64,000 nucleotides of DNA from Jatrophihabitans sp. (GTDB lineage Bacteria; Actinomycetota; Actinomycetes; Mycobacteriales; Jatrophihabitantaceae): NCBI GenBank assembly GCA_036559305.1, contig DATBTJ010000051.1, forward strand, positions 1,129 through 65,128, read 5' to 3'. This document shows positions 15,994 to 60,599 of the stretch, in pieces. How positions within the stretch are numbered: the stretch's first letter is position 1; every line of letters begins with the position of its first letter. Position numbers and translations under genes: made by a program. The notes below the pieces were generated by a model, which was given only the letters and a program-made list of their open reading frames with translations, searched no databases and was not told the DNA's origin.

Positions 15994-16022
15994 TGTGGAG
16001 TTGACCTCCGAGTCCCGCGAGC

Positions 16023-16053
16023 GGGTCCCCGGGGCGGTTAGCCCCGGGGACCC
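16023..16053 (-). terminator. intercistronic GC hairpin between the SBP and permease genes
   Basis: Perfect 13-bp stem GGGTCCCCGGGGC / GCCCCGGGGACCC with loop GGTTA. Lies 53 nt after the SBP stop and 30 nt before the permease start. Confidence 0.5.
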
Positions 16054-16105
16054 CTCGGTTAGCTGGGCTTGGCCAGTAGCCTAGCCCCGGTCAGCTGGGT
16101 GTGAC

Positions 16106-17854: not shown

Positions 17855-18006
17855 TGGTTAGTGACCTCCTGTGATGCGCCCGCCGACGATCTGTCAGCGG
17901 GCCATTGTGGAATGCAAGTCGCTGGCGCTCGCTCGTGGCAAGACGGCCCACCGATCGTTACCAACTGTTGATACTGGTGATATTCGGGCGTGTCGCGACC
18001 GCCCGG

Positions 18007-41900: not shown

Positions 41901-42524
41901 TGGCAGGAGTCGCTCGCCGCCCCGAACGGCACGCCCTGCGGTTCGGGGAGCCAGCAGCCCACCCACGGCGGCATCTACGTCGACGTGAACCCGGCCGGCT
42001 GCGTCAACCTCTACGGCAACCAGGGCGGCTGGCAGGTCACGATCAGCTACTACGACAAGGGCACGGCGAACCAACACTCCTTCACCTACACGCTGGACGG
42101 CACGCCACCGGGCTACATTCCCTGTCAGGTGTCCGGCTCGAACTTCGCCGCCGCCTGGGACCAGAACTCCGACCCGAACAACCCGACCGTGACCGTCGAC
42201 TACACCAAGAACAACGGTGACAAGCTCGACGGCTGTTCGAACTGGAACTACACCATCGTCAAGAACGCCGTGCAGGGTTGCGGTTCGGCCGAGCCCAACG
42301 GCGGCAGCCCGGACCACGGCAACGGCCAGACCACCGTGCAGTCGAACTGCGACACCCAAGCGCTCGGCCTGAACTTCTCGCTGCGCATCGACTTCACCCG
42401 TCCCGACGGCTCCGGCGATTCGTACACGATCAACGTGTCGGGCTCGCCACCCCAACCGACCCCGACCCCCACGCCGACCACCCCGACCCCCACGCCGACG
42501 ACTCCCTCCCCGACGCCGACGTGA
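38970..42524 (+). CDS. giant membrane-anchored extracellular protein with FN3-like and Cys-paired Ig-like domains and a terminal Pro/Thr tail
   Basis: GTG start with GAGGGGGA upstream. Single TM (IALLCGLVLVAAGIAAVSYLV). FN3 signature ISLNWIY...ATEYELTVTAF. Many paired Cys. Ends in PPQPTPTPTPTTPTPTPTTPSPTPT. Confidence 0.8.
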   Translation: MAGPRRRARPQGAGSAFRPSAPNPAAGHAPSRTQTIALLCGLVLVAAGIAAVSYLVKPATARSFNLFYGSVYLDDNTSPVAVDLASGKPTVRLANAFTAVSAKAPEDINAYPLDGGNTLLLDPATGEFNMVDSTGFVIKSSDGGVPLPKADGPTTSTAVPAGSSAYIVRRSSDATSVYLVGAATVSASFGSRSGTKARAYATLPAPVSTDPVPVADAGGALWMLTRDGGQTRRITELTVPPGSNAGVTLTATARGTVTGPAAVASATSDPLGTGSSGDAAVGVASADSVAVFRGSDRTRVPVSAGPGVDTILPATNAHGALVFLYHSSTGWSLVSVPATAGTLAQVHPLRAIPADARLARPAASDGSTYTMDTARGSLWQIGASGAAEQVPGAASYPLKRGEKAQFDATEVLADGGRVIFNSRANLQAEVVFSDGSHAPRTIDKHAAVQVDPSGATALADAHTKGQKAQKGKTHKPVKAPKQPTQTINDKIDCKVAKQVPRVPTLVAGDRAARSISLNWIYQKLDPSDCYPSTYVVDIKVLSSNAPSPPSGQVTVQGQDGVTLTHLFPATEYELTVTAFINTEHTTSAPIRVTTGPEGPAAPTGVRASADSSGNWTVSWNSCGGIAQGCVPSATWYLIPSFCDGRGLSGAPAKVTVPGDPTQHSFSHVYTGGTALLGRAMCFQVQGVSPQGTIGTTSATSAPAFSWTTPLAGALQLHASQPANTTFGGTTTTTVDLDLGADPTRDVGGIGASITLKLTGPGGAQTKSVVWDGRTDRVSEQFAGIKAGAQYTATATIAPPRHPADAVSVGPATVTTRASWPALSAQASCPAGNGPVTLSCTLVVRMSGPSSAQAGGERFDLTNSSLTCGGGNSAKPLTKYGFDPANEAITASVDLLTYNGSCTVTVQLKESAHGSAPLVFGGTSSPVVTEPVDLGHATTLDAGQGDFSAQWDSHDGSSALVRYTGNHSDSDLAQITQGWQESLAAPNGTPCGSGSQQPTHGGIYVDVNPAGCVNLYGNQGGWQVTISYYDKGTANQHSFTYTLDGTPPGYIPCQVSGSNFAAAWDQNSDPNNPTVTVDYTKNNGDKLDGCSNWNYTIVKNAVQGCGSAEPNGGSPDHGNGQTTVQSNCDTQALGLNFSLRIDFTRPDGSGDSYTINVSGSPPQPTPTPTPTTPTPTPTTPSPTPT
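42459..42500 (+). repeat. 21-bp direct repeat x2 encoding the PT tail
   Basis: ACCCCGACCCCCACGCCGAC occurs at 42459-42478 and 42480-42499. Confidence 0.75.
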
Positions 42525-47361: not shown

Positions 47362-47916
47362 CTAGAGCAGGAACGACGTCCCGGTGACCGCGACGCCGGC
47401 GGCGGCCGCGGCCTCTTCCAGCGCCAGCAGGGTAGCCCGCGAGCCACCGCCGTAGTTGATGTCGCCCGCGCCGGCATCGCCGGCGGTCTGCAGTTCGGAG
47501 GCCTTCTGGTCGTCGACCTGCACGTACGCCTTGTAGGTGTCGGCGATCTTGCACAGGTGTTCGGCCAGCCGCGCCGCGACCACCGACGCGGACTTCTTCA
47601 GGGTCCCGCCGCTGTAGATGTCCGGGGCCAGAGCCTGGACGACCGTCGTCTGCACCGAGTCGGTCACGCCCTGGATGCGGCTCACCTCGAGCACCTGCGA
47701 CGAGTACGGCTCCTGGGGCAGGTTCCTCAGCGCGGCCTGGAACTGCTCGTGGACGGCCTTGACCTTGAAGTAGTAGTCGTAGAGCGCCTGGAGATCGACC
47801 CGCAGCTGCTGACCATTGCCCGACGCGACTGCCAGGGCGAGGTCGGCATTGATCCCGGCCTCGATCCCCCCGGCGACCGCGCCGATCGAGCTGGCGGCGC
47901 TACCTGCATCCAACAT
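47362..47916 (-). CDS. ESX-associated hypothetical helical protein (184 aa)
   Basis: GGGAGA lies upstream of the ATG, which is 12 nt after the preceding stop. Last gene of the accessory operon. No recognisable domain. Confidence 0.6.
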   Translation of the reverse strand: MLDAGSAASSIGAVAGGIEAGINADLALAVASGNGQQLRVDLQALYDYYFKVKAVHEQFQAALRNLPQEPYSSQVLEVSRIQGVTDSVQTTVVQALAPDIYSGGTLKKSASVVAARLAEHLCKIADTYKAYVQVDDQKASELQTAGDAGAGDINYGGGSRATLLALEEAAAAAGVAVTGTSFLL

Positions 47917-47928
47917 CGCGGTTTCTCC

Positions 47929-49422
47929 CTACTCGCCGATCACCGGGGGCGCGGCGGTCACGCCGTCGCCCCAAACGTCCTCGGTCTCGACGAGGTAGTC
48001 CGGCACCCGCGCCTCTTCCTCGTCGTCGCGGCGCCGCGCGCCGCCGCCACCGGGGTAGCCGCCCATCCGGCCGGCCTCACCGGCCACCGGCTCACCCATG
48101 AAGCCCTCGGGGGCGCCCGCGCGCAGCACGCCCCGCCGCCCGGGCGGAAGTTCTTCCTGGGCCAGGCCGCCGCCGGGCAGCCGGCTGCTGCCTGCCTCGC
48201 CCTCGCCGAGGGCCCCGCTGCCGAGGCGACCGCGGCCGGTGCTCTCGCCCTCGGCGAGCCCCGACCCGCTGCCGGTGCCGGTGCCGGGACGGCTTTCGCC
48301 CTCGGCCAGCCCACCCGAGCGGCCGCGGCCGGTGCCCTCGGTGAAGCCCTCGCTCGCGCCGTTCGCGCCCCGCCCCAGCAGCGAGCCGCCGGTGAGCGCG
48401 CCCGCGCCGAGCAGGCCGGCCCCACCGAGCACGCCGCCCGCCGTTCCGACGCCGCCGCTCGGTGTCTCCGGCACGGCCTGACTCGGCGGCCCCGCCGGGG
48501 TCAGCGGGTTGGTGCCCGGGTCGGTGCTCTGCGGGGTGGTCGTCGTCGGGATGGTGGTCTGCGTCGGCGGCGTCGGGTCCTTGATCGCCTGCGGCGGCTT
48601 GCGGGTGTCGTGGCCCTTCACGCCGTCGGTCATGATCTGGTTGTCGGTGGAGTTCATCGCAACGCCGGCCACCGGCGTGCTGTAGCCACCGCCCGGGCCG
48701 CCGCCGTGAGGACCGCCGCTGTAGTGGCTGCCGATGTGGCCCGACCGGCCGCCCGAGCCCGGCACGGGCGGCAGGCTCGAGGGCGGGGTGTTGGCCCTGG
48801 TCGGGCCGTTGGGCCAGGACTGGGAGCGCATGGTGTCGGCCTGCGCGGTGCCGCCGGAGTCCATCCGGTTGGCGATCTGGACGGCCTGGGCGTGCGCCTG
48901 CTGATACTTCTGGTGCTGCTGGTACTTGGCCATGCCGATCCCGATGATGCCGCCCGGGGCGCCCGAGGTGATCGCGTGCCCCATCGAGTCGTCGACGTTC
49001 GGGATCGACCGCGATTTGGCCTGGTCGGCCTTGGCCTGCTCGTAGTAGGACTTCGACGCCGACGACGAGGCGGTCGAGGCCGAGTGCATCTGGGTGAACT
49101 GCTGATGGGTGGTCTGCGCGTCGGCTACCGCTGCACTGGCCGCCGGGCCCTCCCACGCGGCGCCGAGCGACTTGACCTGATTCATGAAGTCGTCGGCGGC
49201 CTGGGCGCAGGCCCGGGAGCCTTCGTCGAACTGGCGCGCGGACTGGTCGAGCCAGCTGATGTCGGCGTTCTCGATCTCCAGCTTGAGCGTCTTGAGATCC
49301 CAGCTGCTGTAGTCGTTGCTCACCGCGCTCCCCCTACGGCCAGGCGCAGCTGCGCCGTCCGACCGTGTCGTTGCGCCCCAATCGATGTGATTTGGGCGCG
49401 ATTCGTCTTGATCGTAGGACAC
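47929..49422 (-). CDS. putative ESX substrate: PPE-like/WXG helical N-domain, Gly/Pro-rich middle, acidic-Trp C-terminus
   Basis: YSSWDLKTLKLEI...VKSLGAAWEGPAASAA (W-x-G), Pro/Thr and Gly tracts, and the tail RRRDDEEEARVPDYLVETEDVWGDGVTAAPPVIGE. Confidence 0.7.
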   Translation of the reverse strand: MSYDQDESRPNHIDWGATTRSDGAAAPGRRGSAVSNDYSSWDLKTLKLEIENADISWLDQSARQFDEGSRACAQAADDFMNQVKSLGAAWEGPAASAAVADAQTTHQQFTQMHSASTASSSASKSYYEQAKADQAKSRSIPNVDDSMGHAITSGAPGGIIGIGMAKYQQHQKYQQAHAQAVQIANRMDSGGTAQADTMRSQSWPNGPTRANTPPSSLPPVPGSGGRSGHIGSHYSGGPHGGGPGGGYSTPVAGVAMNSTDNQIMTDGVKGHDTRKPPQAIKDPTPPTQTTIPTTTTPQSTDPGTNPLTPAGPPSQAVPETPSGGVGTAGGVLGGAGLLGAGALTGGSLLGRGANGASEGFTEGTGRGRSGGLAEGESRPGTGTGSGSGLAEGESTGRGRLGSGALGEGEAGSSRLPGGGLAQEELPPGRRGVLRAGAPEGFMGEPVAGEAGRMGGYPGGGGARRRDDEEEARVPDYLVETEDVWGDGVTAAPPVIGE

Positions 49423-49461
49423 ATCGTCCGTGCAGTTCTTCCCGAAAACCTCACAGAAGTC

Positions 49462-50262
49462 TCATCCCCCCGTCTCGTAGCAACTCGCGACCGCGTCGAC
49501 CGCGGCGCGGAACAGCGCGTCCGGGCCCGCGCCGGTCAGTAACACCACCGGCTGGCCCTGGCGCCGACCGCGCTCGACCTGCAGCAGCGTCCCGGCGTCG
49601 TACTCGCGCCAGGTCGCCGAACGCGCCGAGTGGCGCGGCGGCTCGTCCGGCCCGCCGTAGGCCATCGCGCCGAGCGCCCCCGAGGTCGCCGCCGCGTTGC
49701 CGACCCGTTCTCGCAGCAGGATGAGGTCCTCGGTGAGGCCGAGGTGCGACATCTGCGCGCGCAAGGTGCGAGCGCTCGCACCGGACTCGATCGCGGCATC
49801 GAGGTCGCGCAGCCCCGCCACGCTCACCTCGCACGGCTCGCAGCGCAACGGTGTCAGCGGTGGCAGCGCGCCGACCACCCCGGCGGCGAGCTCGGTATCG
49901 GCGATCTCACGAACGGCCACCTTCTGCGCGTCGAGCAGCAGCAGTACCGCGCGATCGTCGCGGCTCGCGACAGAGAAGAACTTCGTCTCGTCGGCGTCGG
50001 GGACCCTCGCCCGCACGGCGTAGACCGACAGACGCGGTGCGCTGAAGGCCGACGCCGTCGCCGCGAGCACCGGCGAGTCGGTCAGTTCGCGTTCGGCGAG
50101 CAGGCGGGTGAGCTGGTCACGGTCCGGGCCGGGGACGAAGCCGAGCGCGCCGCTGCCCAGCGGGAACGGCAGCGCCAGGCCACGCGCCCTGGTCCAGGCC
50201 ACGAACTCCGGGGTGGACAGCGACACCCAGTCGACACCGATCCCGGACCTGGTCTCGGTCAT
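49462..50262 (-). CDS. espG: EspG-family ESX secretion chaperone (putative)
   Basis: VSLSTPEFVAWTRARGLALPFPLG... N-terminal pattern and about 270 aa length are typical of EspG. GGAGGA lies upstream. It sits directly upstream of the PPE-like gene. Confidence 0.65.
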   Translation of the reverse strand: MTETRSGIGVDWVSLSTPEFVAWTRARGLALPFPLGSGALGFVPGPDRDQLTRLLAERELTDSPVLAATASAFSAPRLSVYAVRARVPDADETKFFSVASRDDRAVLLLLDAQKVAVREIADTELAAGVVGALPPLTPLRCEPCEVSVAGLRDLDAAIESGASARTLRAQMSHLGLTEDLILLRERVGNAAATSGALGAMAYGGPDEPPRHSARSATWREYDAGTLLQVERGRRQGQPVVLLTGAGPDALFRAAVDAVASCYETGG

Positions 50263-50264
50263 GA

Positions 50265-51275
50265 TCAGCTTCCTCCGAGGGTGAGGTCGCCGTCGATCCG
50301 GCGTTGCGACTCGTGCCCGTCACGGTTGCCGGTCCGGCCACCCTTGATCGTGTCGTCGCCGACTCCGATGGCGGTGTCGATGCCGGCGTTCTTGACGGCC
50401 TTCGAGATGCCTTCGTCGAGGGCCTTTCGCGCGGCGTTGCGGCCGGTCTGCGCGAACACGTCCGAGGCCGAGCGCAGGGCCCCTTCGGCCTGGCGCAGGG
50501 CGGTGGCCTGCTCCTGGACGGCCTGCGCCAGCGTGCTGAACTCGCCCTCGACGTGGCGGATCATGCTCGCGACGCGCTCGAGCATGGACGAGGTCTGCCC
50601 GACGGTCTCGGCTCCCTGCCCACAGGCCATCGCCGCCTCGCCGGCGACTGCGGCCTGGCCCGCGGCCTCGCTCGCGCCGAAGGTGAACAACGCCGACGCC
50701 GCGGCGGCCGCCTCGGTCAGGATCGCGTACTCGACCCAGCTCGCGATGATGCTCTTGATCAATCCCTGCGCGCCGTCCATCAGGGTGGCGCTGACCCGCA
50801 GCACGTCGGCGACGTGATCGGCCTGGCCCGCCACGCTCGCGACGCCGTGCTCGAAGGCCGCGATCTTGGCCCGGAAGGCATCGCCTGCGGCGCCGGCCCA
50901 GCTGCCCTGCGTCCGGGCCGCGTCCTGACCGACCGCGGGACCCAGCTCGCGCAGGCTCGCCCCGACCTCGTTCCACTGGTCGGCCTTGGCGTTGAGACCG
51001 TCCGGATCGCCGGTGACCAGGTCGAGGGCCTGCTTCAACGGCGCGACCAGGTCGATCAGGAAGCTCAACCCGGCCTCGATCAGCGCCTCGAGCGGATCGC
51101 CGAGCGCCGCGCCGGAGTGGCCGCCGACGAACGCGGACACATCCTTGGCCAGGCCGCCGATGTCCCAGACGTCCTTGCCGGCCGCGAGCAGGTTCCCCTC
51201 GCCGATGTCCTTGCCGAGCGACTTGCCCGACTCATAGCCCTTGACGCCGACGGCGAGGCCGTCCCCGGCGCTCAT
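50265..51275 (-). CDS. putative T7SS-secreted protein with WXG-like N-domain and hydrophobic Ala/Gly segment
   Basis: LVTGDPDGLNAKADQWNEVGASLRELG...GSWAGAAGDAF (W-x-G). AILTEAAAAASALFTFGASEAAGQAAVAGEAAMACG. ATGA overlap with the upstream gene. Confidence 0.65.
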   Translation of the reverse strand: MSAGDGLAVGVKGYESGKSLGKDIGEGNLLAAGKDVWDIGGLAKDVSAFVGGHSGAALGDPLEALIEAGLSFLIDLVAPLKQALDLVTGDPDGLNAKADQWNEVGASLRELGPAVGQDAARTQGSWAGAAGDAFRAKIAAFEHGVASVAGQADHVADVLRVSATLMDGAQGLIKSIIASWVEYAILTEAAAAASALFTFGASEAAGQAAVAGEAAMACGQGAETVGQTSSMLERVASMIRHVEGEFSTLAQAVQEQATALRQAEGALRSASDVFAQTGRNAARKALDEGISKAVKNAGIDTAIGVGDDTIKGGRTGNRDGHESQRRIDGDLTLGGS

Positions 51276-51607
51276 GAGCCACCGTCGGTCGTCGAGCTGA
51301 TGCCGGAGAACAGCCCCGCGGCCGCTTCGTCGGCGGCGTCGTAGTCGCGCGCGCTCGCCTCGACCGCGGTGCGGGCCGCGGTGAGGAAGGCCTGCACCTC
51401 GCCGATGCTGCGATCGGCGCTCGTGCGCGCGGAGGCGTAGCCGTCGTGGAGCCCCAGGCCGAGACCGAGCGCGCCCCAGGAGATGGTGTCGACCTCGGCC
51501 GCACGCGCCTTGCCGGCTATCGCGCCGGCGGTGTCGGCGTGCTCGCCCAGGCCGCCGGCGACCGAGCGCAACGCCGCGGTCGTGACGTGGAAGTGATTGC
51601 AGGTCAT
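51272..51607 (-). CDS. small helical ESX-associated protein (EspC/DUF2580-like, 111 aa)
   Basis: HVTTAALRSVAGGLGEHADTAGAIAGKA... helical pattern. Starts 1 nt after the YbaB-like stop. Confidence 0.6.
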   Translation of the reverse strand: MTCNHFHVTTAALRSVAGGLGEHADTAGAIAGKARAAEVDTISWGALGLGLGLHDGYASARTSADRSIGEVQAFLTAARTAVEASARDYDAADEAAAGLFSGISSTTDGGS

Positions 51608-51608
51608 G

Positions 51609-52073
51609 TCATTCCTCTTCGGGGGAGAATCGACCGCCGGGCGTGCCGGGCGTGCCGGACGCCGGGGCGGCCGGATCAGCCGAATCAGCCGGGGCCGCTG
51701 CCTCGGATGCGGTCGCGCCGGACAGGCTCGGGAGCCTGCCCTGCGCGATCGCGCCGACGTCGACGCGGCGCCCGGTCAGGGGCGCGACCTCGGCGCTGGT
51801 GCGCTCGGCGACCTCGGCGAGCCCGGAACGGATCGCCTCCAGGATCGTGCTCGCGAGCGTCTCGGGCGTCTTGGCCATCGCCTGGCTGGTCAGCTTGAGG
51901 TCGACGATCGCGCCGCCCGCGGCGAGCTCGACACTCACGCTGCGGTCGGTGGAGCTTGCCCGCACGCGCAACTTCTCGAGCACCTCCCGGATCTGGTGGT
52001 ACTGCGCCACCTGCGCGCGGCTTCGCTCACGCGCGGCAGCCAGCGGTGCCACCTCGTCCCGGGCAGCGGTCAC
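51609..52073 (-). CDS. YbaB/EbfC-like protein (EspL-like) with Ala/Pro-rich tail
   Basis: LRVRASSTDRSVSVELAAGGAIVDLKLTSQAMAKTPETLASTILEAIRSGLAEV fits the YbaB fold pattern. GTG start at 52073. Confidence 0.65.
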   Translation of the reverse strand: MTAARDEVAPLAAARERSRAQVAQYHQIREVLEKLRVRASSTDRSVSVELAAGGAIVDLKLTSQAMAKTPETLASTILEAIRSGLAEVAERTSAEVAPLTGRRVDVGAIAQGRLPSLSGATASEAAAPADSADPAAPASGTPGTPGGRFSPEEE

Positions 52074-52119
52074 GATCGGATCCTCTCGATGATTCGTCGG
52101 TTGAGTGGCGGTCGGTGGC

Positions 52120-52455
52120 TCAGCGCAGCCAGGTCTGGGAGAACTCGTCGTCGTCGGTGTCGTCGCGGGGCGCAGCCGCCGTGGCGGCCGGGCCGGGCTC
52201 GGTCCGGCGGACCGGAAGCTCCCACTCGTCCTCGGGGTCGAAGCGAGTGTCTCGCTCCGGCTCGACCGGCTGCTCGGGCGGGTCCGGCGCACGGGTGAGC
52301 GTGAGCCCACGCACGTGCTCGACGAGCGCGGCGTTGGCCGCCCGCGTCTGGCGCCCGACCGCGTCGAGGGTGTTGAACACCCCGTCGCGCGCCGACCGGG
52401 CGCCGGACACGAGGTCCTGCATCACCGCGGCCATCCTGCTCGCCGGCTCAGTCAT
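52120..52455 (-). CDS. small ESX-associated hypothetical protein with acidic/Trp C-terminus (111 aa)
   Basis: The ATG is 6 nt after the stop of the 849-aa gene. C-terminus ...DPEDEWELPV...DDTDDDEFSQTWLR. Confidence 0.55.
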   Translation of the reverse strand: MTEPASRMAAVMQDLVSGARSARDGVFNTLDAVGRQTRAANAALVEHVRGLTLTRAPDPPEQPVEPERDTRFDPEDEWELPVRRTEPGPAATAAAPRDDTDDDEFSQTWLR

Positions 52456-52461
52456 CGCCGA

Positions 52462-55011
52462 TCACTGCTCGCCGATGACAGGGCCCATCCGCTGCCATTC
52501 CTCGAGGTCCTCCTCGCCGACCAGGTCGCCGCGCTGCGCGTAACGGCGGGCCGACTCCTGCTCCTGAGCGCCCGCTCCCCCACGGGCGCCGCCCCCACCG
52601 AACGGGACGCCGCCGAGGCCACTGCCCTGCCCGCCGTGAGCCTGATCGCCCGCCGCCGCCCCGGCGACCGGGGAGGCCGGCGACGCCGCGGCCGAACCGC
52701 TCATCGCGTTGGCGGTCGTGTTGTCGGCCCCGACGTGGGTGCCGTCGGCGAGTTGGCTGCCGCCGCGGTGCGCCGCGGCCACACCGGCCGTCCCGCCGAC
52801 ACCGACACTGCCGACACCGCCGGAACCACCGCCGAGGTTCGCGCCACCTCCGACACCCGCTCCCCCGACACCCGCTCCGCCGCCACCGCCACCGCCGACG
52901 CCGGTCAGGTGCTGCGGCACGGTGCCGCCGGGCCGGGTCAGGCCGCTGGTGTTCATTGCCGGCAAGCCATGCGGGGTCGCTTCGGTGACGACCGGATTGC
53001 CGTGCTCGTCGAAGTGGACGCGGTAGGTGTGCGCGATCCCGTCGGCGCCGGTGTCCCGCAGCGTGAAGACGCCCTTCTTGCCGTGCTCCGGGCTGATCGT
53101 CAGGCCGCGGTCGCGGCCGAGGCTGACCGAGCCGTCCTTGTTCTGGTGGATGTCCTGCCGGGGATCGACCACCCCGGGGCCGGACAGTGCGGTGGACGGG
53201 TCGCCCGACCAGCCCTGCGGCACCGCCTGGCCGGTCGAGGGGTCCTGGCTCCAGCCGTGGGGCAGGGGCACGCCGGACGGGATCCAGGTGGCACCCGGGG
53301 GCAGGCCGGCCGGCCGGGTGGTGCCGGCGGCGGGAGCGCCGCCGGGCAGCCCGAAGCCGCTCGAGGTGCTCGGCGTCCCCTGCGGGGTGGTGAGCCCGGC
53401 CGGAACGGTAGGGGTCCCCGTCGCGATGTTCGGGGTCGCGGTGGGGATGGTCGGGCCGCCGCCAGGAATGCCGCCGCCACCGCCAGGAAAGCCGCCACCG
53501 CCGGCGCCGCCGGGACTGCCGGCGCCACCGCCGGTGCTGCCCGCCGGAGCGGTGCCGTGCGCGCCGTCCATGCCGGCGAACGGGTCGGCGATGTGCTGCA
53601 GCTGCCCGGTGAACTCGGCGAAGCCCTTCTGGATCAGCGAGGTGGTCTTGGTGTTGATCGAGTTGAGGGCGTTCTGCCGCGCGTCGTACTCGGGCACCAG
53701 CACCTGATTGCACCAGTCGGCGGCCGCCAGCTCGGCGGCCTTGCGGCTGTCGTCGCTGAGGGCGTCGCCGCTGGACCAGTCGTTGCCGGCGTCACCGGCC
53801 AGGAACTCGTGGCGTCCGGTCATGTCCATGCCGAGCAGGCCGAGCACGACCCGGCGCTCCGGATCCTCGGCCCGGCCCATCGCAACCTTGGCGAAGGTGT
53901 AGGCGATCCCGCCGTCGATCCGGTCCGGCAGCTGGGCCAGGAACAGCTGGTTGACCGCCTGCGCCTTGGCAATCACCAGCTCCTGCAGGCCCTGGACGAG
54001 CGCGTTGATGTCGCTGCCGACGACGGCCAGATCCTGCTTGACGGTGTTCGCGCCGGTGAACAGCACCTGCATCTTGGCGCCGAAATTCGCCGCCGCCCGG
54101 CCCTGCCAGCTCGACTCGAGGGTGCTCGCCGCACTGTTCAGCTTCCACGCCTCGTCGTCGATGCCCTGCGAGATCGAGGTCATCAGCGCGGCATCGGCGA
54201 CGAGGTCGGCGAAGCTCATCCCCTGCTCGGCGTGGTAGCTCTTCTCGAGCTGGTCGACGGGCTCGCCGCCGCCGGTGTAGAGGTGATAGGCCCGGTAGAA
54301 CCACCTGAAGAACTGCAGGCCCGGTTCGCCCAGCGCGAGCAGTTGGTCGGCGGTCGCGGCCGCCTTCGTGTCGCCCCCGCTGACCTGCTGCGCGTAGTGG
54401 GTCAGGTCGCTCGCGTTGTCGGTGTGTGCCTTGGCGGCGGTGGCGAGCTCGGCCGGGTCCAGGACGCCGGCGGCGATGCGTGCGCGGTCGTTCTCGGAGA
54501 TGCCGTCGACGCCGGTGTTGAAGTCGTCGTTCAGCAGCGAGGAGGCGTCCTTCGCGTCGGCCTTCTTCGCGAAGTCCTGGTTGTGGTGGTAGTCGGACTC
54601 GGTGAAGTTGTAGAAGTCCTTCTCGTTGCTCGTCGAGAACTGGTGGTGCGCCAGGTAGCGGCCGGTCTCGGCCGACTGCTGCACCGGCGGGGTGAGCTGC
54701 GGACCTCCGGAGGAGGTGGTGCCCAGTGCGGAGTTGATCCGGCTCGAGTCGTCCTGCAGCGGCGTGGTCGGGTCGCTCTGGCCTGGTTGCACCGCTTGCC
54801 CGGGCTGCCCTTGCGCCGCGGTCGTGGTCGGCGTCGGCGTGCCGGTCGGCACTGCCGTGCCGCCGGAACCCGTGCCGCCGGAACCCGATCCGCCGGAACC
54901 CGATCCGCCGGAACCCGATCCGCCGGATGTGGCCGCCGGGCGGCGACCCGGTGCGCCGGTGGGCGGGGCGGTGTGGTCGCCGGCATCGGTGTTGTCGGGC
55001 GGAACAGCCAT
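52462..55011 (-). CDS. large putative ESX substrate (849 aa): GS-repeat N-terminus, helical W-x-G domain, Gly/Pro-rich regions, acidic-Trp C-terminus
   Basis: GGSGSGGSGSGGSGSGGTGSGGT repeats. LESSWQGRAAANF (W-x-G). GWSQDPST/GWSGDPST. Poly-Gly tracts. Tail DLVGEEDLEEWQRMGPVIGEQ. Confidence 0.7.
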   Translation of the reverse strand: MAVPPDNTDAGDHTAPPTGAPGRRPAATSGGSGSGGSGSGGSGSGGTGSGGTAVPTGTPTPTTTAAQGQPGQAVQPGQSDPTTPLQDDSSRINSALGTTSSGGPQLTPPVQQSAETGRYLAHHQFSTSNEKDFYNFTESDYHHNQDFAKKADAKDASSLLNDDFNTGVDGISENDRARIAAGVLDPAELATAAKAHTDNASDLTHYAQQVSGGDTKAAATADQLLALGEPGLQFFRWFYRAYHLYTGGGEPVDQLEKSYHAEQGMSFADLVADAALMTSISQGIDDEAWKLNSAASTLESSWQGRAAANFGAKMQVLFTGANTVKQDLAVVGSDINALVQGLQELVIAKAQAVNQLFLAQLPDRIDGGIAYTFAKVAMGRAEDPERRVVLGLLGMDMTGRHEFLAGDAGNDWSSGDALSDDSRKAAELAAADWCNQVLVPEYDARQNALNSINTKTTSLIQKGFAEFTGQLQHIADPFAGMDGAHGTAPAGSTGGGAGSPGGAGGGGFPGGGGGIPGGGPTIPTATPNIATGTPTVPAGLTTPQGTPSTSSGFGLPGGAPAAGTTRPAGLPPGATWIPSGVPLPHGWSQDPSTGQAVPQGWSGDPSTALSGPGVVDPRQDIHQNKDGSVSLGRDRGLTISPEHGKKGVFTLRDTGADGIAHTYRVHFDEHGNPVVTEATPHGLPAMNTSGLTRPGGTVPQHLTGVGGGGGGGAGVGGAGVGGGANLGGGSGGVGSVGVGGTAGVAAAHRGGSQLADGTHVGADNTTANAMSGSAAASPASPVAGAAAGDQAHGGQGSGLGGVPFGGGGARGGAGAQEQESARRYAQRGDLVGEEDLEEWQRMGPVIGEQ
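54860..54927 (-). repeat. 15-bp in-frame tandem repeat x4.5 (GSGGS units)
   Basis: CCGCCGGAACCCGAT is repeated at 54875, 54890 and 54905, with a variant unit at 54860 and a partial unit at 54920. Confidence 0.85.
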
Positions 55012-55012
55012 G

Positions 55013-55342
55013 TCAGGCTCCCGTTCCCGAGCTGCGCAGCGCCGCGGAGTTGCTCGCGTCGTTGCTCTCGTAGTCGCGACCGTTGCTTGCGAGCTTGATG
55101 GAGGTCTCGTCGCACCGGTGCGAGAACTGCGAGATGATCATCGCGAGCACGCTGTTCGGACCGGCGATGGCGTCGTGATAGGCCGTGCCCTGCGCCTGGT
55201 AGTCGCGCCCGGTGGTCGACGCCGAGCCCTTGATGGTGGTGAGCCTGCGCCCTTGGGCGCTGATGGGTTCCACCTCGGCATGAAAGGCCGAGGCGGCCTG
55301 GGAGAACGCTGCGGTGTCAGCGGTGAAGCTGTCGCCGGCCAT
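55013..55342 (-). CDS. small helical ESX-associated protein (EspC/DUF2580-like, 109 aa)
   Basis: The in-frame ATG at 55342 has GGAGG upstream. MAGDSFTADTAAFSQAASAFHAEV... Its stop is 1 nt before the 849-aa gene start. Confidence 0.65.
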   Translation of the reverse strand: MAGDSFTADTAAFSQAASAFHAEVEPISAQGRRLTTIKGSASTTGRDYQAQGTAYHDAIAGPNSVLAMIISQFSHRCDETSIKLASNGRDYESNDASNSAALRSSGTGA

Positions 55343-55519
55343 GGGTTGCCTCCGAATGGAAGTGGTCGCCGGGCCCGAGTGGTCTATGCCGTCCGACCCG
55401 AGAACGGGGACGGCGAACACCCGGCGGGCCGGGCCTGCACCGACACCCGTCGCGAGACGGGGCGACGCGGTCACGCACCGCATGACCGCTCGGGAGATAG
55501 AGATCGACCGGGAAGAACG

Positions 55520-55562
55520 ACACGCGCCCAGCCCGTTGAGCTGCAACAGGCTGGGCGCGTGT
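55520..55562 (-). terminator. intrinsic-terminator-like hairpin after the WXG100 gene pair
   Basis: Perfect 14-bp stem ACACGCGCCCAGCC / GGCTGGGCGCGTGT with a 15-nt loop. On the minus-strand RNA it is followed by CGUUCUUCC. A second 8-bp hairpin lies at 55579-55598 (CGACCGGC/GCCGGTCG). Confidence 0.5.
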
Positions 55563-55606
55563 GGTCCCGAGATCTGATCGACCGGCCGGAGCCGGTCGGG
55601 GCCGCG

Positions 55607-55897
55607 TCAGCTGAAGCGGCTGGCGTTCTGCGACTCGGTGGTCTGGAAACCCTCGTTGGCCGACCCGAGCGCCCGCCCGATGGCGGAGAGCACCGCGTTG
55701 AGGTCGTTGGCAGCCTGGTCCCACTGGGCCTGCTTGGCGTTGTAGTTGGTCGCCGCCTGGCCTTCCCACGTGGACACCATCGGTGCCAGGTAGGACTTCA
55801 GGTCCTGCAGCGAGTTGTTGATGCTGGCGACGGTCTGCTGGGCGTGCTCCTGGGTCGCCTGCACCTGGGCAAACGTGACCTTGATCTGATCGCTCAC
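55607..55897 (-). CDS. esxA: WXG100-family protein (EsxA-like)
   Basis: VSDQIKVTFAQVQ...MVSTWEGQAATNY (W-x-G). About 96 aa. The GTG at 55897 has GGGAGAAGGA upstream. The track's alternative start is 55915. Confidence 0.88.
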   Translation of the reverse strand: MSDQIKVTFAQVQATQEHAQQTVASINNSLQDLKSYLAPMVSTWEGQAATNYNAKQAQWDQAANDLNAVLSAIGRALGSANEGFQTTESQNASRFS

Positions 55898-55981
55898 GGC
55901 GAATCCTTCTCCCATGATGAAAGTTCGAAAGCTTGTTGAGGAACGAGACCTGCGGACGCAGCGCGCCCGCCCGATCTGGCG

Positions 55982-56308
55982 TCAGATGTTCAGCCCGCTG
56001 CCGGCGGACTTCACGGCGTCCTGCGCGGCCTGGTCCTGCGCGGCGTAGGTCTGACCCGACGACCGGATCTGCTCGGAGATGTCGGTGAGGGCCTGCGAGA
56101 GCTTCTGCGCGTCCTCGTTGTAGCGGACCATCAGGGCCTGGAAGGTCGACGCGGCCTGACCGGTCCAATGCGCCTGGACGGCTTCGACCTGACTCTGCAG
56201 GCCGGACAGCTGCGCCCGGACCTCGTTGTTGACGTCGTCGACCTTGCTCGCAGCCTGCTGCATCTGCGCGGTCTGAGTAGTGAACGCACCAGTCACCTTG
56301 CGCTCCAT
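55982..56308 (-). CDS. esxB: WXG100-family protein (EsxB-like) with C-terminal YxxxD motif
   Basis: AVQAHWTGQAASTF (W-x-G) and a C-terminal GQTYAAQDQ (Y-x-x-x-D). Alternative GTG start at 56296, preceded by GGAG. Confidence 0.88.
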   Translation of the reverse strand: MERKVTGAFTTQTAQMQQAASKVDDVNNEVRAQLSGLQSQVEAVQAHWTGQAASTFQALMVRYNEDAQKLSQALTDISEQIRSSGQTYAAQDQAAQDAVKSAGSGLNI

Positions 56309-56534: not shown

Positions 56535-59500
56535 TCAGACCTCGGCGATCTGGATCAGCTGCTGGCCGTAGCGACGCCCCACGATCACGCCGCGCCCGGG
56601 CGGCATCGCGGCGGGCCGGGTGGTGCCGAGCAGCACCCCTTCGTCCCGGCTGCCCGAACCGATCACGCCGGGCGACCCCAGTTCGCGGATGCGCTGGATG
56701 ACCGGTTCGAACAGCGCGCGTGCTGCGCCGCCGGTGCGCCGGCACAGCACGAGGTGCAGGCCGACGTCCTTGGCCTGCGGCAGGAATTCGGCCAGCGCGG
56801 CGATCGGGTTGCCCGAGGGCGAGGCCACCATGTCGTAGTCGTCGACGACGACAAAGATCTCCGGCCCGCTCCACCAGCTGCGATCGCGCAGCTGCTCCGG
56901 CGTGACCTCCGGGCCGGGCAGGCGCCCCTGCAGCACGGGGCGCAGGTCGTCGATGAACGCCTGCAGCGCGGGGCCGGCCGGTGCGTACCCGGCGAGGTAC
57001 TCCTGCGGGACGTACCCGAGCATGGTGCGCCGGTAGTCGACCAGCAGGATGCGCGCCTGCTCGTGGCTGTACCGCGACATGATGCCCCGCGCCACCACCT
57101 TCAAGAAGTTCGTCTTCCCCGACTCGGCGTCGGCGAACAGGATGAAGTGCGGATCGAGGTCGAAGTCGAGCAGGACCGGCGCGAGGGCGTCCTCGTTCAG
57201 CCCGATCGCGATCGGACGAGTGCCGTTCGGCTCGGGAAGCTGGGCGACCAGGTCGGCATAGGGCACCGACGCCGGCAGCATGCGCACCCGCGGGGCCGGC
57301 CGACCGGTCCATGCGGTGCGCACCTTCTCGACCAGATCGGCGTAGGCGACGGCGAGGTCGCCGGTCTCGGACGAGCCGTCGATGCGCGGGACGGCGGCGA
57401 GGAAGTGCAGCCGCTGCTGGGTGAGCCCCCGGCCCGGCCGCGAGCCCGGCACCGCGGCCGCCACCCGCCGGTCGATCTCGGACTCGGACGGATCGCCGAG
57501 GCGCAGCTCGACCCGGGTGCCGAGGGTGTCCTTGAGCGCGGCGCGGATCTCGGCCCAGCGGTTGGCGCCGACGACGACGTGGACGCCGAAGGACAGGCCC
57601 TGGCCGGCGATGCCGGTCACCCGCTGCTCGAGATCCTCGAACTCGGCGCGGAAGTTGGCCCAGCCGTCCACGACGAGGAACACGTCGCCGAACGGGTCGT
57701 CGTCGTGATGGCCGGCCTTCTTCAGCTGCCGGTAGGCCGCCATGCTCTCGATCCCGGCGGCCCGGAACCGCTCCTCGCGCTCGGCGAGCACGGTGCTGAC
57801 CTCGGCCACCATCCGGCGCACGAGATCGGGGTTGGACCGCGACGCGATGCCGCCGACGTGCGGCAGGCCGGCCGTGGTGGCGAGCGAGCCACCACCGAGG
57901 TCGATGCCGTAGATCTGCACCTCGCGCGGGGTGTGCGTCAGCGCCAGCGAGGTGATCAGGTCGCGCAGGACGGTGCTCTTGCCGCTCTGCGGTCCGCCGA
58001 CCACGGCGCCGTGCCCGGCCGCGCCGGAGAAGTCGAGCAGCAGCTGGTCACGGCGCTGCTCGTAAGGCCGGTCGACGATGCCGACGGGGACGATGAGCCG
58101 GCCGTTGCCGCCCCACCCGTCCGGGCCGAGGCCGCGGTCGGGGGTGGTCGTCAGTGGCGGCAGCATGCTGTCCAGCGACGGCGACTCGGCGAGCGGCGGC
58201 AGCCAGACCTCGTGGGCCGGCACGCCCCTGCCCAGCAGCTTCTCCACTACGACGTCCAGGACGGACTTCTCCAGGCCCTGCATGCGCTGCGCCGGCTCGG
58301 GGATCGGTACCGGCACGGCCTCGTCCGGGGTCTCCGGCGCGTCGATCGGGTCGGTGAGGAACGGCAGCGGCCGTCGCGCGAAGGCGGTACCCGGGCCGGC
58401 CGCGACGGTGTCGCGCCGGTAGGCCCCGGACACGTAGGCCGCCTTGAACCGCACCAGCGTCGACACGTCGAACTTCAGGTACCCCGAGCCCGGGATGGAC
58501 GGCAGCTCGTAGGCGTCCGCCACGCCGAGCACCGCGCGCGACTCGGCGGCGGAGAACGTCTTTAGCCCGATCCGGTAGGACAGGTGGCTGTCCAGCCCGC
58601 GCAGCTTGCCCTCCTCGAGACGCTGCGAGGCGAGCAGCAGGTGCATCGACAGCGACCGGCCGAGCCGGCCGATCGCGACGAACAGCTCGGCGAACTCGGG
58701 CTTCTGCGTGAGCATCTCGGTGAACTCGTCACAGACGATCAGCAGCGACGGCAGCGGATCGAGCGGGGCGCCCGCCTCGCGGGCCCGCTCGTACTCGCGC
58801 ACGTTGGCGTAGTTTCCGGCGGTCTTGAGCAGCTCCTGCCGACGATTCATCTCACCGGCGAGCGCGTCGTGCATGCGGTCGACCAACGTCAGGTCGTCCT
58901 GCAGGTTCGTGATCACCGCGGCGGTGTGCGGCAGATCGTTGAGCCCGAGGAAGGTCGCGCCGCCCTTGAAGTCGACGAGGATGAGGTTGAGCGCGCTGGG
59001 CGAGTGCGTCATCGCCAGCCCGAGCACGAGCGTGCGCAGCAGCTCGGACTTCCCGGAACCGGTCGCGCCGATCACCAGCCCGTGCGGGCCCATCCCCTCG
59101 AGCGCGGCCTCCTTGATGTCGAGCTCGACCGGCTCGCCGTGCTCGCCCACCCCGATCGGGATCCGCAAGCGGTCGCGGACGGTGCGCGGGCGCCACAGCT
59201 GTTCGGCGCTGACGTTCTCCGGGTCGCCCACCCCGAGCATGTCGACGAGCTCGGCCGAGGTGAGCAGCGGCTGCTCGTCGGTGGTCTCGGCAGCCCCGAC
59301 GCGCCACGGGGCCATCCGCCGCGCGACGGCATCGGCTTCGGTGACGCCGAGCCGGTCGGCGCGCCCGAGCACCTCGACACCGTTGCGGCCGACCGCGCCG
59401 ACCTTGCCGTCCTCGACGACCAGGCGCAGCCCCCGCCGGGCCGCGAGACGACCGATCGAGCTCGACAGGTCGATGATGGTGACGCCGACCAGGCCGTCCT

Positions 59501-60491
59501 CGAGCAGGACGCGCTCCTCGAGGCTCACCGCGCCGCCGTCGATCACGATGACGACGTGCGGCTGGTCCGGCGCCGGGGTCACGTCGCGGGCGAACCGCGC
59601 GCGGGTCGCCATCTCCGCGGAGAGCCATTCCTCCAGCTCGGCGAGCGAGCTCGCGACCAGCCGCCGGGTGCCGACCGCATCGCTCTCGCGCGGGTCCTGC
59701 GCGTGCGGCAGCCACTTGACCCAGTCCCAGTCGATGCGGCTCGGGCCGGACGTCACCACGCCCACGATGACGTGGTCGGGACCGTGGAACGTGGTCAGCT
59801 CGGCCAGCATCGCCCGGACGAGGTCACGCACCTCGGCGCGGGCGCCACGCACCTCGATCGCCGGGAACGAGCGCAGCTTGACCGCCACCGGCAGGTCGTC
59901 GACGAGGGCGTGGGCGCGGACCAGGCGGCGCAGCGCGACCGCGCCGATCGGGTCGAGACTTTCGATCAGCCCGGTCTGCGGCGGACGCAGCTGGCGGGCC
60001 AGCCGCTGCGGGCCGACCCCGACGCGCACCGTGCTGAAGTCGCGATCGCTCGGGCGGCGTTCCCACATCCGTCGCCCGCCCGCGATCGACCAGAGCGAGC
60101 GGGGGTCGGGATGTGACCAGAGCAGGCTGGTGCGCTGGCCGAGCCGGATCCGGTCGATGTCGCGGCGGACCTGCTCGATGTAGCGCAGATAGTCCTTGCG
60201 GTCGGTGTCGATCTGCGCCTTGCGGCCGGTCTTGCGCCCGCCCATGCCGCCGCCCATCATGCCCAGCGTCGAGAGCAGGATCAGCCCGCCCATCGCCATG
60301 GACGCCGCGCTCAGGCCGCCGATGAAGATGAAGCCCACCGAGCCGAGGATCATCACGCCGGGCAGCAGCGCGCCCATGATGTTGCCGGGCAGCATCCGCG
60401 GGATCTCCGGCGGCGGCTCGAGCTGCACCTCACCGGTCGGCATCGCGGGCACTGGCATGCGCGGCCTGCGCCGGAACGTGCGTGTCGCCAA
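56535..60491 (-). CDS. eccC: type VII secretion FtsK/SpoIIIE ATPase EccC (fused EccCa/Cb)
   Basis: Two N-terminal TM helices. Three P-loop domains (GATGSGKSELL, GGPQSGKSTVL, ADAESGKTNFL). 1318 aa. Confidence 0.95.
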   Translation of the reverse strand: MATRTFRRRPRMPVPAMPTGEVQLEPPPEIPRMLPGNIMGALLPGVMILGSVGFIFIGGLSAASMAMGGLILLSTLGMMGGGMGGRKTGRKAQIDTDRKDYLRYIEQVRRDIDRIRLGQRTSLLWSHPDPRSLWSIAGGRRMWERRPSDRDFSTVRVGVGPQRLARQLRPPQTGLIESLDPIGAVALRRLVRAHALVDDLPVAVKLRSFPAIEVRGARAEVRDLVRAMLAELTTFHGPDHVIVGVVTSGPSRIDWDWVKWLPHAQDPRESDAVGTRRLVASSLAELEEWLSAEMATRARFARDVTPAPDQPHVVIVIDGGAVSLEERVLLEDGLVGVTIIDLSSSIGRLAARRGLRLVVEDGKVGAVGRNGVEVLGRADRLGVTEADAVARRMAPWRVGAAETTDEQPLLTSAELVDMLGVGDPENVSAEQLWRPRTVRDRLRIPIGVGEHGEPVELDIKEAALEGMGPHGLVIGATGSGKSELLRTLVLGLAMTHSPSALNLILVDFKGGATFLGLNDLPHTAAVITNLQDDLTLVDRMHDALAGEMNRRQELLKTAGNYANVREYERAREAGAPLDPLPSLLIVCDEFTEMLTQKPEFAELFVAIGRLGRSLSMHLLLASQRLEEGKLRGLDSHLSYRIGLKTFSAAESRAVLGVADAYELPSIPGSGYLKFDVSTLVRFKAAYVSGAYRRDTVAAGPGTAFARRPLPFLTDPIDAPETPDEAVPVPIPEPAQRMQGLEKSVLDVVVEKLLGRGVPAHEVWLPPLAESPSLDSMLPPLTTTPDRGLGPDGWGGNGRLIVPVGIVDRPYEQRRDQLLLDFSGAAGHGAVVGGPQSGKSTVLRDLITSLALTHTPREVQIYGIDLGGGSLATTAGLPHVGGIASRSNPDLVRRMVAEVSTVLAEREERFRAAGIESMAAYRQLKKAGHHDDDPFGDVFLVVDGWANFRAEFEDLEQRVTGIAGQGLSFGVHVVVGANRWAEIRAALKDTLGTRVELRLGDPSESEIDRRVAAAVPGSRPGRGLTQQRLHFLAAVPRIDGSSETGDLAVAYADLVEKVRTAWTGRPAPRVRMLPASVPYADLVAQLPEPNGTRPIAIGLNEDALAPVLLDFDLDPHFILFADAESGKTNFLKVVARGIMSRYSHEQARILLVDYRRTMLGYVPQEYLAGYAPAGPALQAFIDDLRPVLQGRLPGPEVTPEQLRDRSWWSGPEIFVVVDDYDMVASPSGNPIAALAEFLPQAKDVGLHLVLCRRTGGAARALFEPVIQRIRELGSPGVIGSGSRDEGVLLGTTRPAAMPPGRGVIVGRRYGQQLIQIAEV

Positions 60492-60599
60492 GGTGCTGCG
60501 TCCCTCTCGATCCGGCTGGTGCCTCGCGGCTGTACACGATCATGTTCAGGGACCGCGCGCCATATAGTAAGGCCCACCCCTGCAGCTTGGAGTCGCCTC

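Follow-up and report, generated by a model that had tools for sequence, protein, structure and literature searches.

Putative chaperone-assisted substrate cassettes next to an ESX-4-like type VII secretion locus of Jatrophihabitans

In this study we analysed in silico a 64,000-nucleotide stretch of DNA (the window; G+C content about 72%) from Jatrophihabitans sp. (assembly GCA_036559305.1, contig DATBTJ010000051.1). We concentrated on nine co-directional open reading frames (ORFs), named g1 to g9, which lie downstream of the genes esxB and esxA of an ESX-type type VII secretion system (T7SS). The host, represented by a metagenome-assembled genome (MAG) of Jatrophihabitans, is a non-mycobacterial actinomycete, as the original prediction had assumed. 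The features of the locus are listed in Table 1. The core genes and the esx pair are arranged in the order eccB(-) mycP(+) eccD(+) eccC(-) esx pair(-), which is the order of an ESX-4-type locus and corresponds, also in orientation, to M. tuberculosis ESX-4 (Rv3450c-Rv3444c). The presence of a gene for an EspG-family protein is a departure from classical ESX-4.

Table 1. Features of the ESX locus and of the accessory genes g1 to g9 (positions refer to the window; aa, amino acids).
Feature	Position	Strand	Description
eccB	from 63379	-	gene runs past the window end
mycP	61978-63417	+	
eccD	60519-61973	+	
eccC	56535-60491	-	single polypeptide, 1318 aa
esxB and esxA	55607-56308	-	canonical WXG100 pair of the locus
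esxB	55982-56308	-	WTG at aa 48, YAAQD at aa 88; TIGR03930, 70.8 bits
esxA	55607-55915	-	WEG at aa 50; WXG100, 70 bits
Second hairpin	55579-55598	-	8-bp, just past the esxA stop codon
Stem-loop	55520-55562	-	perfect, 19-bp, in the esxA-g1 spacer
g1 to g9	47362-55342	-	nine co-directional ORFs downstream of esxB/esxA
g1	55013-55342	-	109-aa helical protein, YESND at aa 91-95; putative small partner of g2
g2	52462-55011	-	849-aa WXG protein
g2, helical WXG domain	53542-54474	-	aa ~180-490; AlphaFold2 pLDDT >90
g2, small beta domain	52972-53169	-	aa ~615-680, '...TYRVHFDEHGNPVVTE', set in low-complexity sequence
g2, C-terminal tail	52465-52584	-	conserved, '...QESARRYAQRGDLVGEEDLEEWQRMGPVIGEQ'
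g3	52120-52455	-	111 aa (or 104 aa); candidate third member or adaptor of cassette 1
g4	51609-52073	-	154-aa YbaB-fold protein, GTG start, ribosome-binding site GAGAGGA, acidic tail '...RFSPEEE'
g5	51272-51607	-	111-aa EspC/EspF-like protein, YDAAD at aa 89-93; putative small partner of g6
g6	50265-51275	-	336-aa WXG protein, WAG at aa 126-128
g7	49462-50262	-	266-aa EspG-family putative chaperone
g8	47929-49323	-	WXG protein, 464 aa from the probable start (with a start at 49422, 497 aa)
g9	47362-47916	-	184-aa protein, helical by sequence pattern only, YVQVD at aa 131-135; putative small partner of g8

All nine genes are real, because the order esxB-esxA-g1..g9 is intact in five MAG loci of Jatrophihabitantaceae (L004, L005, L006, L008, and L009) and because an independent gene caller proposed the same genes on metagenome contigs. 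Thus, the predicted row of nine same-strand genes downstream of the esx pair was borne out. The junctions measure 1 nucleotide (nt) for g1-g2, 6 nt for g2-g3, 46 nt for g3-g4, 1 nt for g4-g5, -4 nt for g5-g6 (an ATGA overlap), 2 nt for g6-g7, 138 nt for g7-g8, and 12 nt for g8-g9. The g7-g8 value is based on a revised start of g8: the gene most likely begins with the GTG at position 49323, 33 codons later than noted originally, and would then encode 464 and not 497 residues. This codon is accompanied by a ribosome-binding site (GGGGGAG), was picked by the gene caller, and is the position at which the homologue P0045 begins (MSNDYSGWDL). Of the spacing proposed originally (-4 to +46 nt), the tight junctions and the ATGA overlap were confirmed; the g7-g8 distance of 39 nt, which results from the earlier start of g8, was not. 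If the genes are grouped as g1+g2(+g3), g4+g5+g6, and g7+g8+g9, all gaps within a group are between -4 and 12 nt, and both larger gaps (g3/g4 and g7/g8) coincide with group boundaries. The junction sizes therefore fit an arrangement in three cassettes, which we number 1 to 3.

EsxA and EsxB are 90-98% identical to their counterparts in related MAGs, g4 is 75-89%, g6 65-76%, and g5 and g7 are about 53-64% identical. For g1, g2, g3, g8, and g9, the identity to more distant MAG loci is mostly 36-50%, with g8 and g9 reaching up to 60-69% in the locus L010. These values therefore indicate that the accessory proteins evolve far faster than the Esx pair. L010 (L010:8600-13300, from a related Jatrophihabitans MAG) is a shortened locus, which comprises esxB, esxA, g4, a truncated g6 corresponding to aa 42-183 only, g7, g8, and g9; g1, g2, g3, and g5 are absent from it. 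It follows that the cassettes are separable modules. Fragments of g6 with 187-203 aa also occur as database proteins. Apart from the shared WXG hairpin, BLAST and hhalign detected no close paralogy between the modules, so that the three cassettes did not arise by recent duplication. A match of the g2 domain on plasmids was not found by tblastn.

A bare W-x-G tripeptide is a poor indicator for long proteins, as it is expected by chance in 46-83% of their shuffled sequences. The motifs of g2, g6, and g8 are nevertheless meaningful, because they are kept in every orthologue (6/6, 10/10, and 8/8, respectively), because the proteins match WXG100 profiles, and because the motif occupies the hairpin turn in the models. 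The alignment of the esxA family with the WXG segment of g2 by means of hhalign gave a probability of 93.6%. In all three large proteins, a domain of the WXG100 superfamily (PF06013) is embedded. The three large proteins had been described as Gly/Pro-rich giants bearing W-x-G; the motif stands for all of them, and the composition for g2 and g8, whose glycine plus proline content is 25-26%, but not for g6 (15%). The small proteins g1, g5, and g9 contain one invariant YxxxD motif each (Table 1). In EsxB, g1, and g5 the motif starts at aa 88-91, and the chance of such a position, computed for positions 86-93, is about 2% per protein. Among orthologues it is conserved in 6/6 cases for g1, in 6/7 for g5 (the exception is a frameshifted MAG), and in 7/7 for g9. 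Every YxxxD protein adjoins one WXG protein (g1/g2, g5/g6, g9/g8). Judged by these sequence features only, each cassette contains adjacent genes for a WXG and a YxxxD/E protein, as in a pair with a bipartite signal, and remote counterparts keep the motif.

In cassette 1, g2 starts with a disordered N-terminus rich in Gly, Pro, and Thr. A helical domain of 300 aa comes next, a linker connects it to a small beta domain, and a Gly-rich stretch leads to the conserved tail at the C-terminus. In an AlphaFold2 (AF2) model built on a 70-sequence alignment, WQG (aa 302-304) is located in the turn between the helices 267-299 and 305-354 of the confidently predicted helical domain. The strands of the beta domain are predicted with a local confidence (predicted local distance difference test, pLDDT) of about 86-92, the tail contains a short helix (aa 833-841, pLDDT about 60), and the remainder of g2 is disordered. 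No Pfam match was found for the beta domain; its motif TYxLxLDExGxPV occurs in many family members, those of Nocardia included. The WXG100 score of g2 is 25.4 bits, which is below the cut-off of 27.3 bits; for 70 full-length members of the family, WXG100 was the sole Pfam match (41/70, best value 2.7e-10). A comparison with PDB sequences gave linker artefacts only for full-length g2 and weak Esx matches for the middle domain; the protein hit by the g2 sequence and profile was EsxB. Foldseek found no significant match of the g2 model in the PDB; the PPE41 chain 4kxr_B held rank 17 (target-normalised template modelling score 0.51, probability 0.97, E-value 0.17). The Foldseek matches of the g2 and g8 models, generic long-helix bundles such as BAR domains, were rejected as uninformative. 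An identification of g2 with EspK was not supported, as EspK matched neither by sequence nor among the top 50 Foldseek matches. The flanking protein g1 belongs to no Pfam family. g3 consists of an N-terminal helix, a Pro-rich middle part, the invariant segment RFDPEDEWEL, and the C-terminus DDDEFSQTWLR; it matches no Pfam or NCBIfam family.

Relatives of cassette 1 exist outside the family. An exhaustive profile search with the helical domain of g2 (1.84 billion proteins, E<=1e-3) yielded 190 representative clusters, whose named members belong to Pseudonocardiaceae, Nocardia, and one Mycobacteriaceae MAG. In Actinokineospora pegani and Gandjariella thermophila, the gene order is eccC, Hsp70-like, esxB, esxA, rplM, rpsI, glmM, a small gene (~104 aa), a g2-like gene, a further small gene, and glmS. 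Nocardia camponoti possesses the same triple between glmM and glmS, in an rplM-rpsI-glmM...glmS context; in the Nocardia stretch covered around this cassette, eccC/esx genes were not seen. The g1 profile matches the small genes directly upstream of the g2 homologues (40.8 bits in Actinokineospora, 24.8 in Gandjariella, 16.3 in Nocardia), and their products carry YxxxE or YxxxD near aa 90, at the same place as g1. The proteins encoded just downstream of the g2 homologues end with DDDFSDQSWLR (Gandjariella), DDDDLSGHSWLRR (Actinokineospora), and YYRRSAWLE (Nocardia). The glmM-glmS position is occupied in M. tuberculosis by Rv3440c (103 aa) and Rv3439c (467 aa, Ala/Pro-rich), which synteny would link to g1 and g2. 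The C-terminal tail of g2 is nearly identical even among orthologues with an overall identity of about 40%. Within the g2 family, tails are lineage-specific: '...GDLVGEEDLEEWQRMGPVIGEQ' in the Jatrophihabitans branch, and elsewhere '...QWRTQGQLFDD...SVLGED', '...GAELAEAGPL' (in Nocardia among others), or '...YNE...DDLW'. Many members of the family, those of Nocardia included (P0123-P0192; L017:9001-10743), end with an almost invariant '...(D/S)xGAxLAEAGPL' preceded by '(E/D)DGEH(R/Y/T)P'.

In cassette 2, the label YbaB-like, given to g4 originally, is supported by a score of 43.3 bits for Pfam YbaB_DNA_bd (PF02575; cut-off 25.5). The candidate assignment to the housekeeping nucleoid YbaB (equivalog TIGR00103) was rejected at 14.5 versus 49.45 bits. 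The gene caller likewise gives g4 a length of 154 aa, and a sequence search in the PDB produced no match. We propose g4 as a chaperone of the EspL/EspD/EspH type. g5 passes the cut-off of the family T7SS_ESX_EspC (PF10824) marginally (25.1 versus 23.5 bits, aa 6-98). g6 exceeds the cut-offs of WXG100 (31.4 versus 27.3 bits) and of WXG100_2 (29.2 bits), in addition to a weak match with MCPsignal; 44 homologues were found, and a protein recorded for a Jatrophihabitans sp. MAG is identical to g6. Behind its WXG hairpin, g6 continues as an apolar helical segment rich in Ala and Gly (aa ~172-215), and its C-terminal region is a coiled coil. The sole 19-residue window with a mean Kyte-Doolittle value >1.4 comprises aa 62-80 and is thus outside of this segment, so that the hydropathy of aa 172-215 does not imply a transmembrane helix. 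Membership of g6 in the EspA/EspE family (PF18879) was rejected, as there was no match at E<=1, and PDB sequence searches gave weak Esx matches only.

A Pseudonocardiaceae MAG (L011) contains cassette 2 in two tandem copies, each with a YbaB gene, a gene for a YxxxE protein of 122 or 127 aa, and a g6-like gene. The cassette was also found in the metagenome contig L018 (YbaB, small, and g6-like gene), directly after a g1/g2-like pair. The counterparts of g5 in L011 and L018 bear YxxxE or YxxxD. The C-terminal tails of the two YbaB-like proteins of L011:5363-11275 are acidic and aromatic ('...GFQGIGGSDEW' for one, '...EGYLRLYGSDE' for the other) and echo RFSPEEE of g4 and the g3 tails. Judging from these similarities, the helper proteins may have an acidic C-terminus in common.

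In cassette 3, the EspG-like character attributed to g7 is corroborated by 67.3 bits for ESX-1_EspG (PF14011; cut-off 27), which covers aa 21-252 of 266. A phmmer search against the solved EspG sequences of the PDB gave no match; g7 is therefore very divergent. g8 begins with a helical N-domain, which a Pro-rich linker joins to sequence of low complexity (Gly/Leu-rich and GLAEGE); its conserved C-terminal tail reads '...VPDYLVETEDVWGDGVTAAPPVIGE'. This tail resembles that of g2, whereas the N-domains of the two proteins differ. Alone, g8 reaches 19.9-23.6 bits for WXG100; 7/7 orthologues match the profile, the best one with 28.8 bits. In the AF2 model of its N-domain, which was computed almost without alignment, WEG is placed in the turn between two long helices, which are accompanied by a third one (pLDDT 58). 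A homologue search for the N-domain retrieved two near-identical fragments only. g9 follows g8 in every locus reaching that far and has no Pfam, NCBIfam, or PDB sequence match. g8 and g9 share the reading frame and are separated by a stop codon and four codons (47929-47916). Cassette 3 was found in Jatrophihabitantaceae only.

The designation PPE-like, which had been chosen for g8, was not upheld: g8 itself does not match PPE (PF00823) at E<=1, and three of seven orthologues score 14.4-19.8 bits versus a cut-off of 26. The orthologue matches cover the WXG hairpin only (model positions 21-88), and the N-terminus of g8, (M)SNDYSSW, lacks a Pro-Pro-Glu motif. For none of the small proteins g1, g5, and g9, nor for their orthologues, did PE (PF00934) match at E<=1. 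An identification of g8 with EspB was likewise rejected, as the profile comparison with the PDB gave E-values of 3.9-6.2 only and EspB is absent from the top 50 Foldseek matches. The sole PDB sequences retrieved with the g8 profile were Esx proteins and EspB residues 133-216, at non-significant values. The original prediction had named an assignment to EspB, EspK, or PPE as an outcome that would speak against it; profiles, PDB searches, and Foldseek revealed none.

The spacer between esxA and g1 comprises 264 nt and contains a perfect stem-loop and a second hairpin (Table 1). The RNA of positions 55500-55610 folds with -69.7 kcal/mol (z = -7.5), and none of 200 shuffled sequences folds as well. 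The long inverted repeat is also present in L004, L005, L008, L009, and L010, where the arms show base changes in some cases. It was missed by a terminator consensus scan because it lacks a T-tract, and a consensus scan for sigma-70 promoters found none. The stem-loop is probably a terminator, an attenuator, or a processing site dividing esxBA from the nine genes. Because of the 264-nt spacer with its conserved stem-loop, it is probable that g1 to g9 are not simply co-transcribed with esxBA and that they form a transcription unit which is either separate or attenuated.

We favour, with moderate confidence, an interpretation in which the nine genes constitute three cassettes of substrates with their chaperones, which serve the ESX-4-type T7SS machine next to them. 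The ESX core adjoins them, the cassettes are kept as units elsewhere, and the chaperone families score above curated cut-offs. A modular design, in which each of three modules combines one small partner with one large substrate, had been suggested before; this idea is retained, and the grouping it implied is replaced by g1+g2(+g3), g4+g5+g6, and g7+g8+g9. According to this scheme, the small helical YxxxD proteins g1, g5, and g9 would pair with the WXG helix-turn-helix of g2, g6, and g8, respectively. Each pair would form a four-helix bundle that presents a two-part signal to EccC, as do EsxB/EsxA, PE/PPE, and EspC/EspA. A cytosolic helper per pair, g4 for g5/g6 and g7 for g8/g9, would ensure solubility and export competence, and the acidic-tail protein g3 might be a helper of g1/g2. 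Once they have passed the single membrane of the non-mycolate host, g2 and g8 would most likely remain associated with the envelope or the surface, because they are long, Gly/Pro-rich, and mostly disordered and possess a conserved terminal tail. The apolar helical segment of g6 may enable it to act on membranes. Gene content, synteny, domain families, conserved motifs, and the fold of the g2 domain are established by the analysis; the pairing, the chaperone-client assignments, secretion, and the final location are what we infer.

Several findings weigh against this interpretation. The core is ESX-4-like, i.e. of the ancestral T7SSa type, by gene order only. The motif pair was the sole signal considered, and a canonical YxxxD/E is absent from the large proteins themselves. 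The small/large pairings are deduced from features of the sequences, and the role of g3 as helper or adaptor for g1/g2 is a guess. g9 is, with 184 aa, larger than typical partners, has its motif at aa 131, and follows the large gene rather than preceding it. g1, g3, and g9 have no family detectable in Pfam, NCBIfam, and PDB sequence scans. The models of g2 and g8 have no significant Foldseek match in the PDB, and the confidence of the g8 model is low. Finally, the stem-loop after esxA means that the expression of the nine genes may be uncoupled from that of esxBA.

Alternatively, some members could, instead of being cargo, take part in secretion or regulate it, for example as extracellular or channel-associated structures or as cytosolic sensors that signal the secretion status to a sigma-factor pathway. 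In five related MAG loci, all nine genes stand in unchanged order next to the core; this and the conserved tails of the g2 family would agree with such a role. Furthermore, Rip1, a site-2 protease, controls anti-SigM. SigM drives ESX-4 (PMC13491425), and Rv3439c, which its glmM-proximal position would tie to g2, was recovered as Ppr2, a partner of the Rip1 PDZ domain (PMC6963305). EspB, EspC, and EspE have been cited as proposed structural examples. We nevertheless regard this explanation as unlikely: in L010, cassette 1 and g5 are missing and g6 is truncated, although esxBA, EspG, g8, and g9 are retained. Cassettes 1 and 2 are therefore dispensable, unlike core parts, and the sequence divergence is high for structural components.

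A still less probable explanation is that the large proteins are antibacterial polymorphic toxins of the LXG type that the T7SS would deliver, with the small neighbours as Lap-like targeting or immunity proteins. LXG toxins with Lap partners combine a WXG-related N-terminal helical domain with small helical partners and sometimes with the EspG-fold chaperone EsaE (PMC11217815). The N-terminal WXG-type targeting domain, the variable C-terminus, and the small helical partners of the present proteins resemble this arrangement (PMC11217815), the accessory proteins diverge much faster than EsxA/B, and the Ala/Gly-rich apolar helical segment of g6 could act on membranes. The machine next to them, however, has the EccB/EccD/MycP core of T7SSa, in contrast to the T7SSb of Bacillota, and an LXG domain was not found here. 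As the original prediction had stated for the large proteins, a toxin or enzyme domain is not recognisable; none was found by Pfam and NCBIfam in the nine proteins or by Pfam in 70 members of the g2 family. The C-termini are of low complexity with conserved tails and are not swappable globular domains, and a membrane-type immunity gene is not present. Cassette 1 resides at a fixed glmM-glmS housekeeping site across orders, unlike mobile toxin loci, and no plasmid copy was found. That g4 is an ordinary nucleoid-associated DNA-binding protein clustered incidentally with ESX genes, as its passing of the Pfam YbaB cut-off might suggest, is highly improbable given its failure at the housekeeping equivalog, its long acidic C-terminal extension, a stop codon 1 nt ahead of the g5 start, and the repeated occurrence, in unrelated lineages, of YbaB genes immediately ahead of small-plus-large WXG pairs.

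The arrangement in chaperone-assisted cassettes has counterparts in known systems. In ESX-1, the YbaB-like proteins EspD, EspH, and EspL have been put forward as chaperones for EspA/C and EspE/F (PMC6107294, PMC6109436, PMC6319747). The sets EspD-EspC-EspA and EspH-EspF-EspE of M. tuberculosis and M. marinum are similar to cassette 2, as they combine a YbaB-fold helper with a protein of about 100 aa from the EspC/EspF family and a partner of 300-400 aa. Unlike in these sets, g6 matches WXG100/WXG100_2 and not EspA_EspE, the order is helper-small-large, the host is non-mycolate with an ESX-4-type core, and g4 has an acidic tail, a feature on which the cited papers are silent with regard to EspD, EspH, and EspL. 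Cassette 3 is reminiscent of the PE/PPE-EspG arrangement of mycobacterial ESX-1, -2, -3, and -5, with EspG beside a larger WXG protein and a smaller YxxxD protein. Three orthologues of g8 are weak PPE matches, and PPE15 and PPE41 chains are among the non-significant fold matches. In contrast to PE/PPE pairs, g8 is below the PPE cut-off and without a PPE motif, g9 has 184 aa and no PE match, and g7 is divergent. In its layout, with an N-terminal WXG helical domain and a long Gly/Pro-rich C-terminus, g8 is EspB-like; it differs in having no YxxxD of its own, whereas EspB combines WXG and YxxxD motifs (PMC11217815). EspK resembles g2 as a large, Pro/Gly-rich protein encoded ahead of a YbaB-like gene. 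The respective gene order is espK-espL-espB.

Comparable gene sets also belong to the SigM/ESX-4 regulon of M. abscessus, whose cassettes are predicted substrates (PMC13491425). Cassette 1 can be likened, by their listing in a table, to Mab_3747c (EsxB-like, YxxxD), Mab_3746c (WXG), and Mab_3745c (uncharacterised), which are six gene numbers away from esxTU (Mab_3753c/3754c). Cassette 2 corresponds in type to Mab_2773c (YbaB/EspL-like), Mab_2772c, and Mab_2771c, a 'chemotaxis protein' that recalls the weak MCPsignal match of g6; cassette 3 corresponds to Mab_0147c (EspG-like) with a PPE and a PE gene (PMC13491425). The M. abscessus cassettes are distributed over 15 loci, several with enzyme domains, whereas here three are concatenated behind esxBA and enzyme domains were not seen. 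A family new to science had been suggested for the large proteins and their partners. This holds for the families of g1, g3, g8, and g9 and, within the g2 family, for the helical domain of 300 aa, the small beta domain, and the conserved tails at the C-terminus, all of which are undescribed; it does not hold for the overall design, which is known from mycobacteria and matches the ESX-1 sets, PE/PPE-EspG, and the M. abscessus cassettes.

Two further ideas, which even together we regard as rather doubtful, concern cassette 3 and the tails. With its EspG, its g8 with a faint PPE-like signal, and g9, cassette 3 might be a relative of PE/PPE-EspG outside mycobacteria, attached to an ancestral ESX-4-type core. 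If this were true, chaperone-guided secretion of the PE/PPE type would predate the mycobacterial ESX duplications. The acidic, Trp-containing tails of g2 and g8, to which those of g3 and of the YbaB proteins are similar, could serve as an undescribed second element that is recognised, for example, by EccC or by a PDZ protease like Rip1; the latter is suggested because Rv3439c has been reported as Ppr2.

With respect to the surroundings, g9 is followed on its other side by a convergent MoxR-DUF58-transglutaminase operon, which ends 28 nt from g9. Directly upstream of these genes lies an ORF of 1184 aa with high third-position G+C (38970-42524, plus strand), for which a Pfam match at E<=1e-3 was not found. 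The lowest G+C of the window, 0.65 versus about 0.72, coincides with an Opp-type peptide ABC transporter operon (11717-17857, minus strand), which encodes a solute-binding protein as well as two permeases and two ATPases. In two Pseudonocardiaceae (L013:1-1803 and L015:3921-5822), an Hsp70/MreB-like gene (612-633 aa) is located upstream of esxB/esxA, in L015 directly after eccC; the next gene in L013 encodes a protein of 162 aa with the acidic tail '...EDDDDYFADQQILLEGG'. In the window, such a gene is absent between eccC and esxB.

According to a review, ESX-4 is the only T7SS in non-mycobacterial Actinomycetota, and EspG is missing from some ESX-4 subtypes (PMC11217815). A core in ESX-4 order with EspG and three cassettes is therefore a notable variant and not a new kind of system. 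The practical value of the locus is that of a guide for annotation and pairing predictions, not of a new mechanism. The locus bears on the questions of which cargo the ancestral ESX-4 transports and which roles EspG and YbaB helpers play outside pathogenic mycobacteria. The genes for candidate ESX-4 cargo lie scattered in mycobacteria, where only a shared sigma factor ties them to the machine (PMC13491425). Three cassettes located directly behind esxBA and conserved in a family of soil actinomycetes thus lend independent genomic support to the assumption that such genes encode T7SS cargo. The locus offers a compact test set for these questions, with three predicted pairs, two clear chaperones, the candidate adaptor g3, and a widespread family of 300-aa WXG domains.

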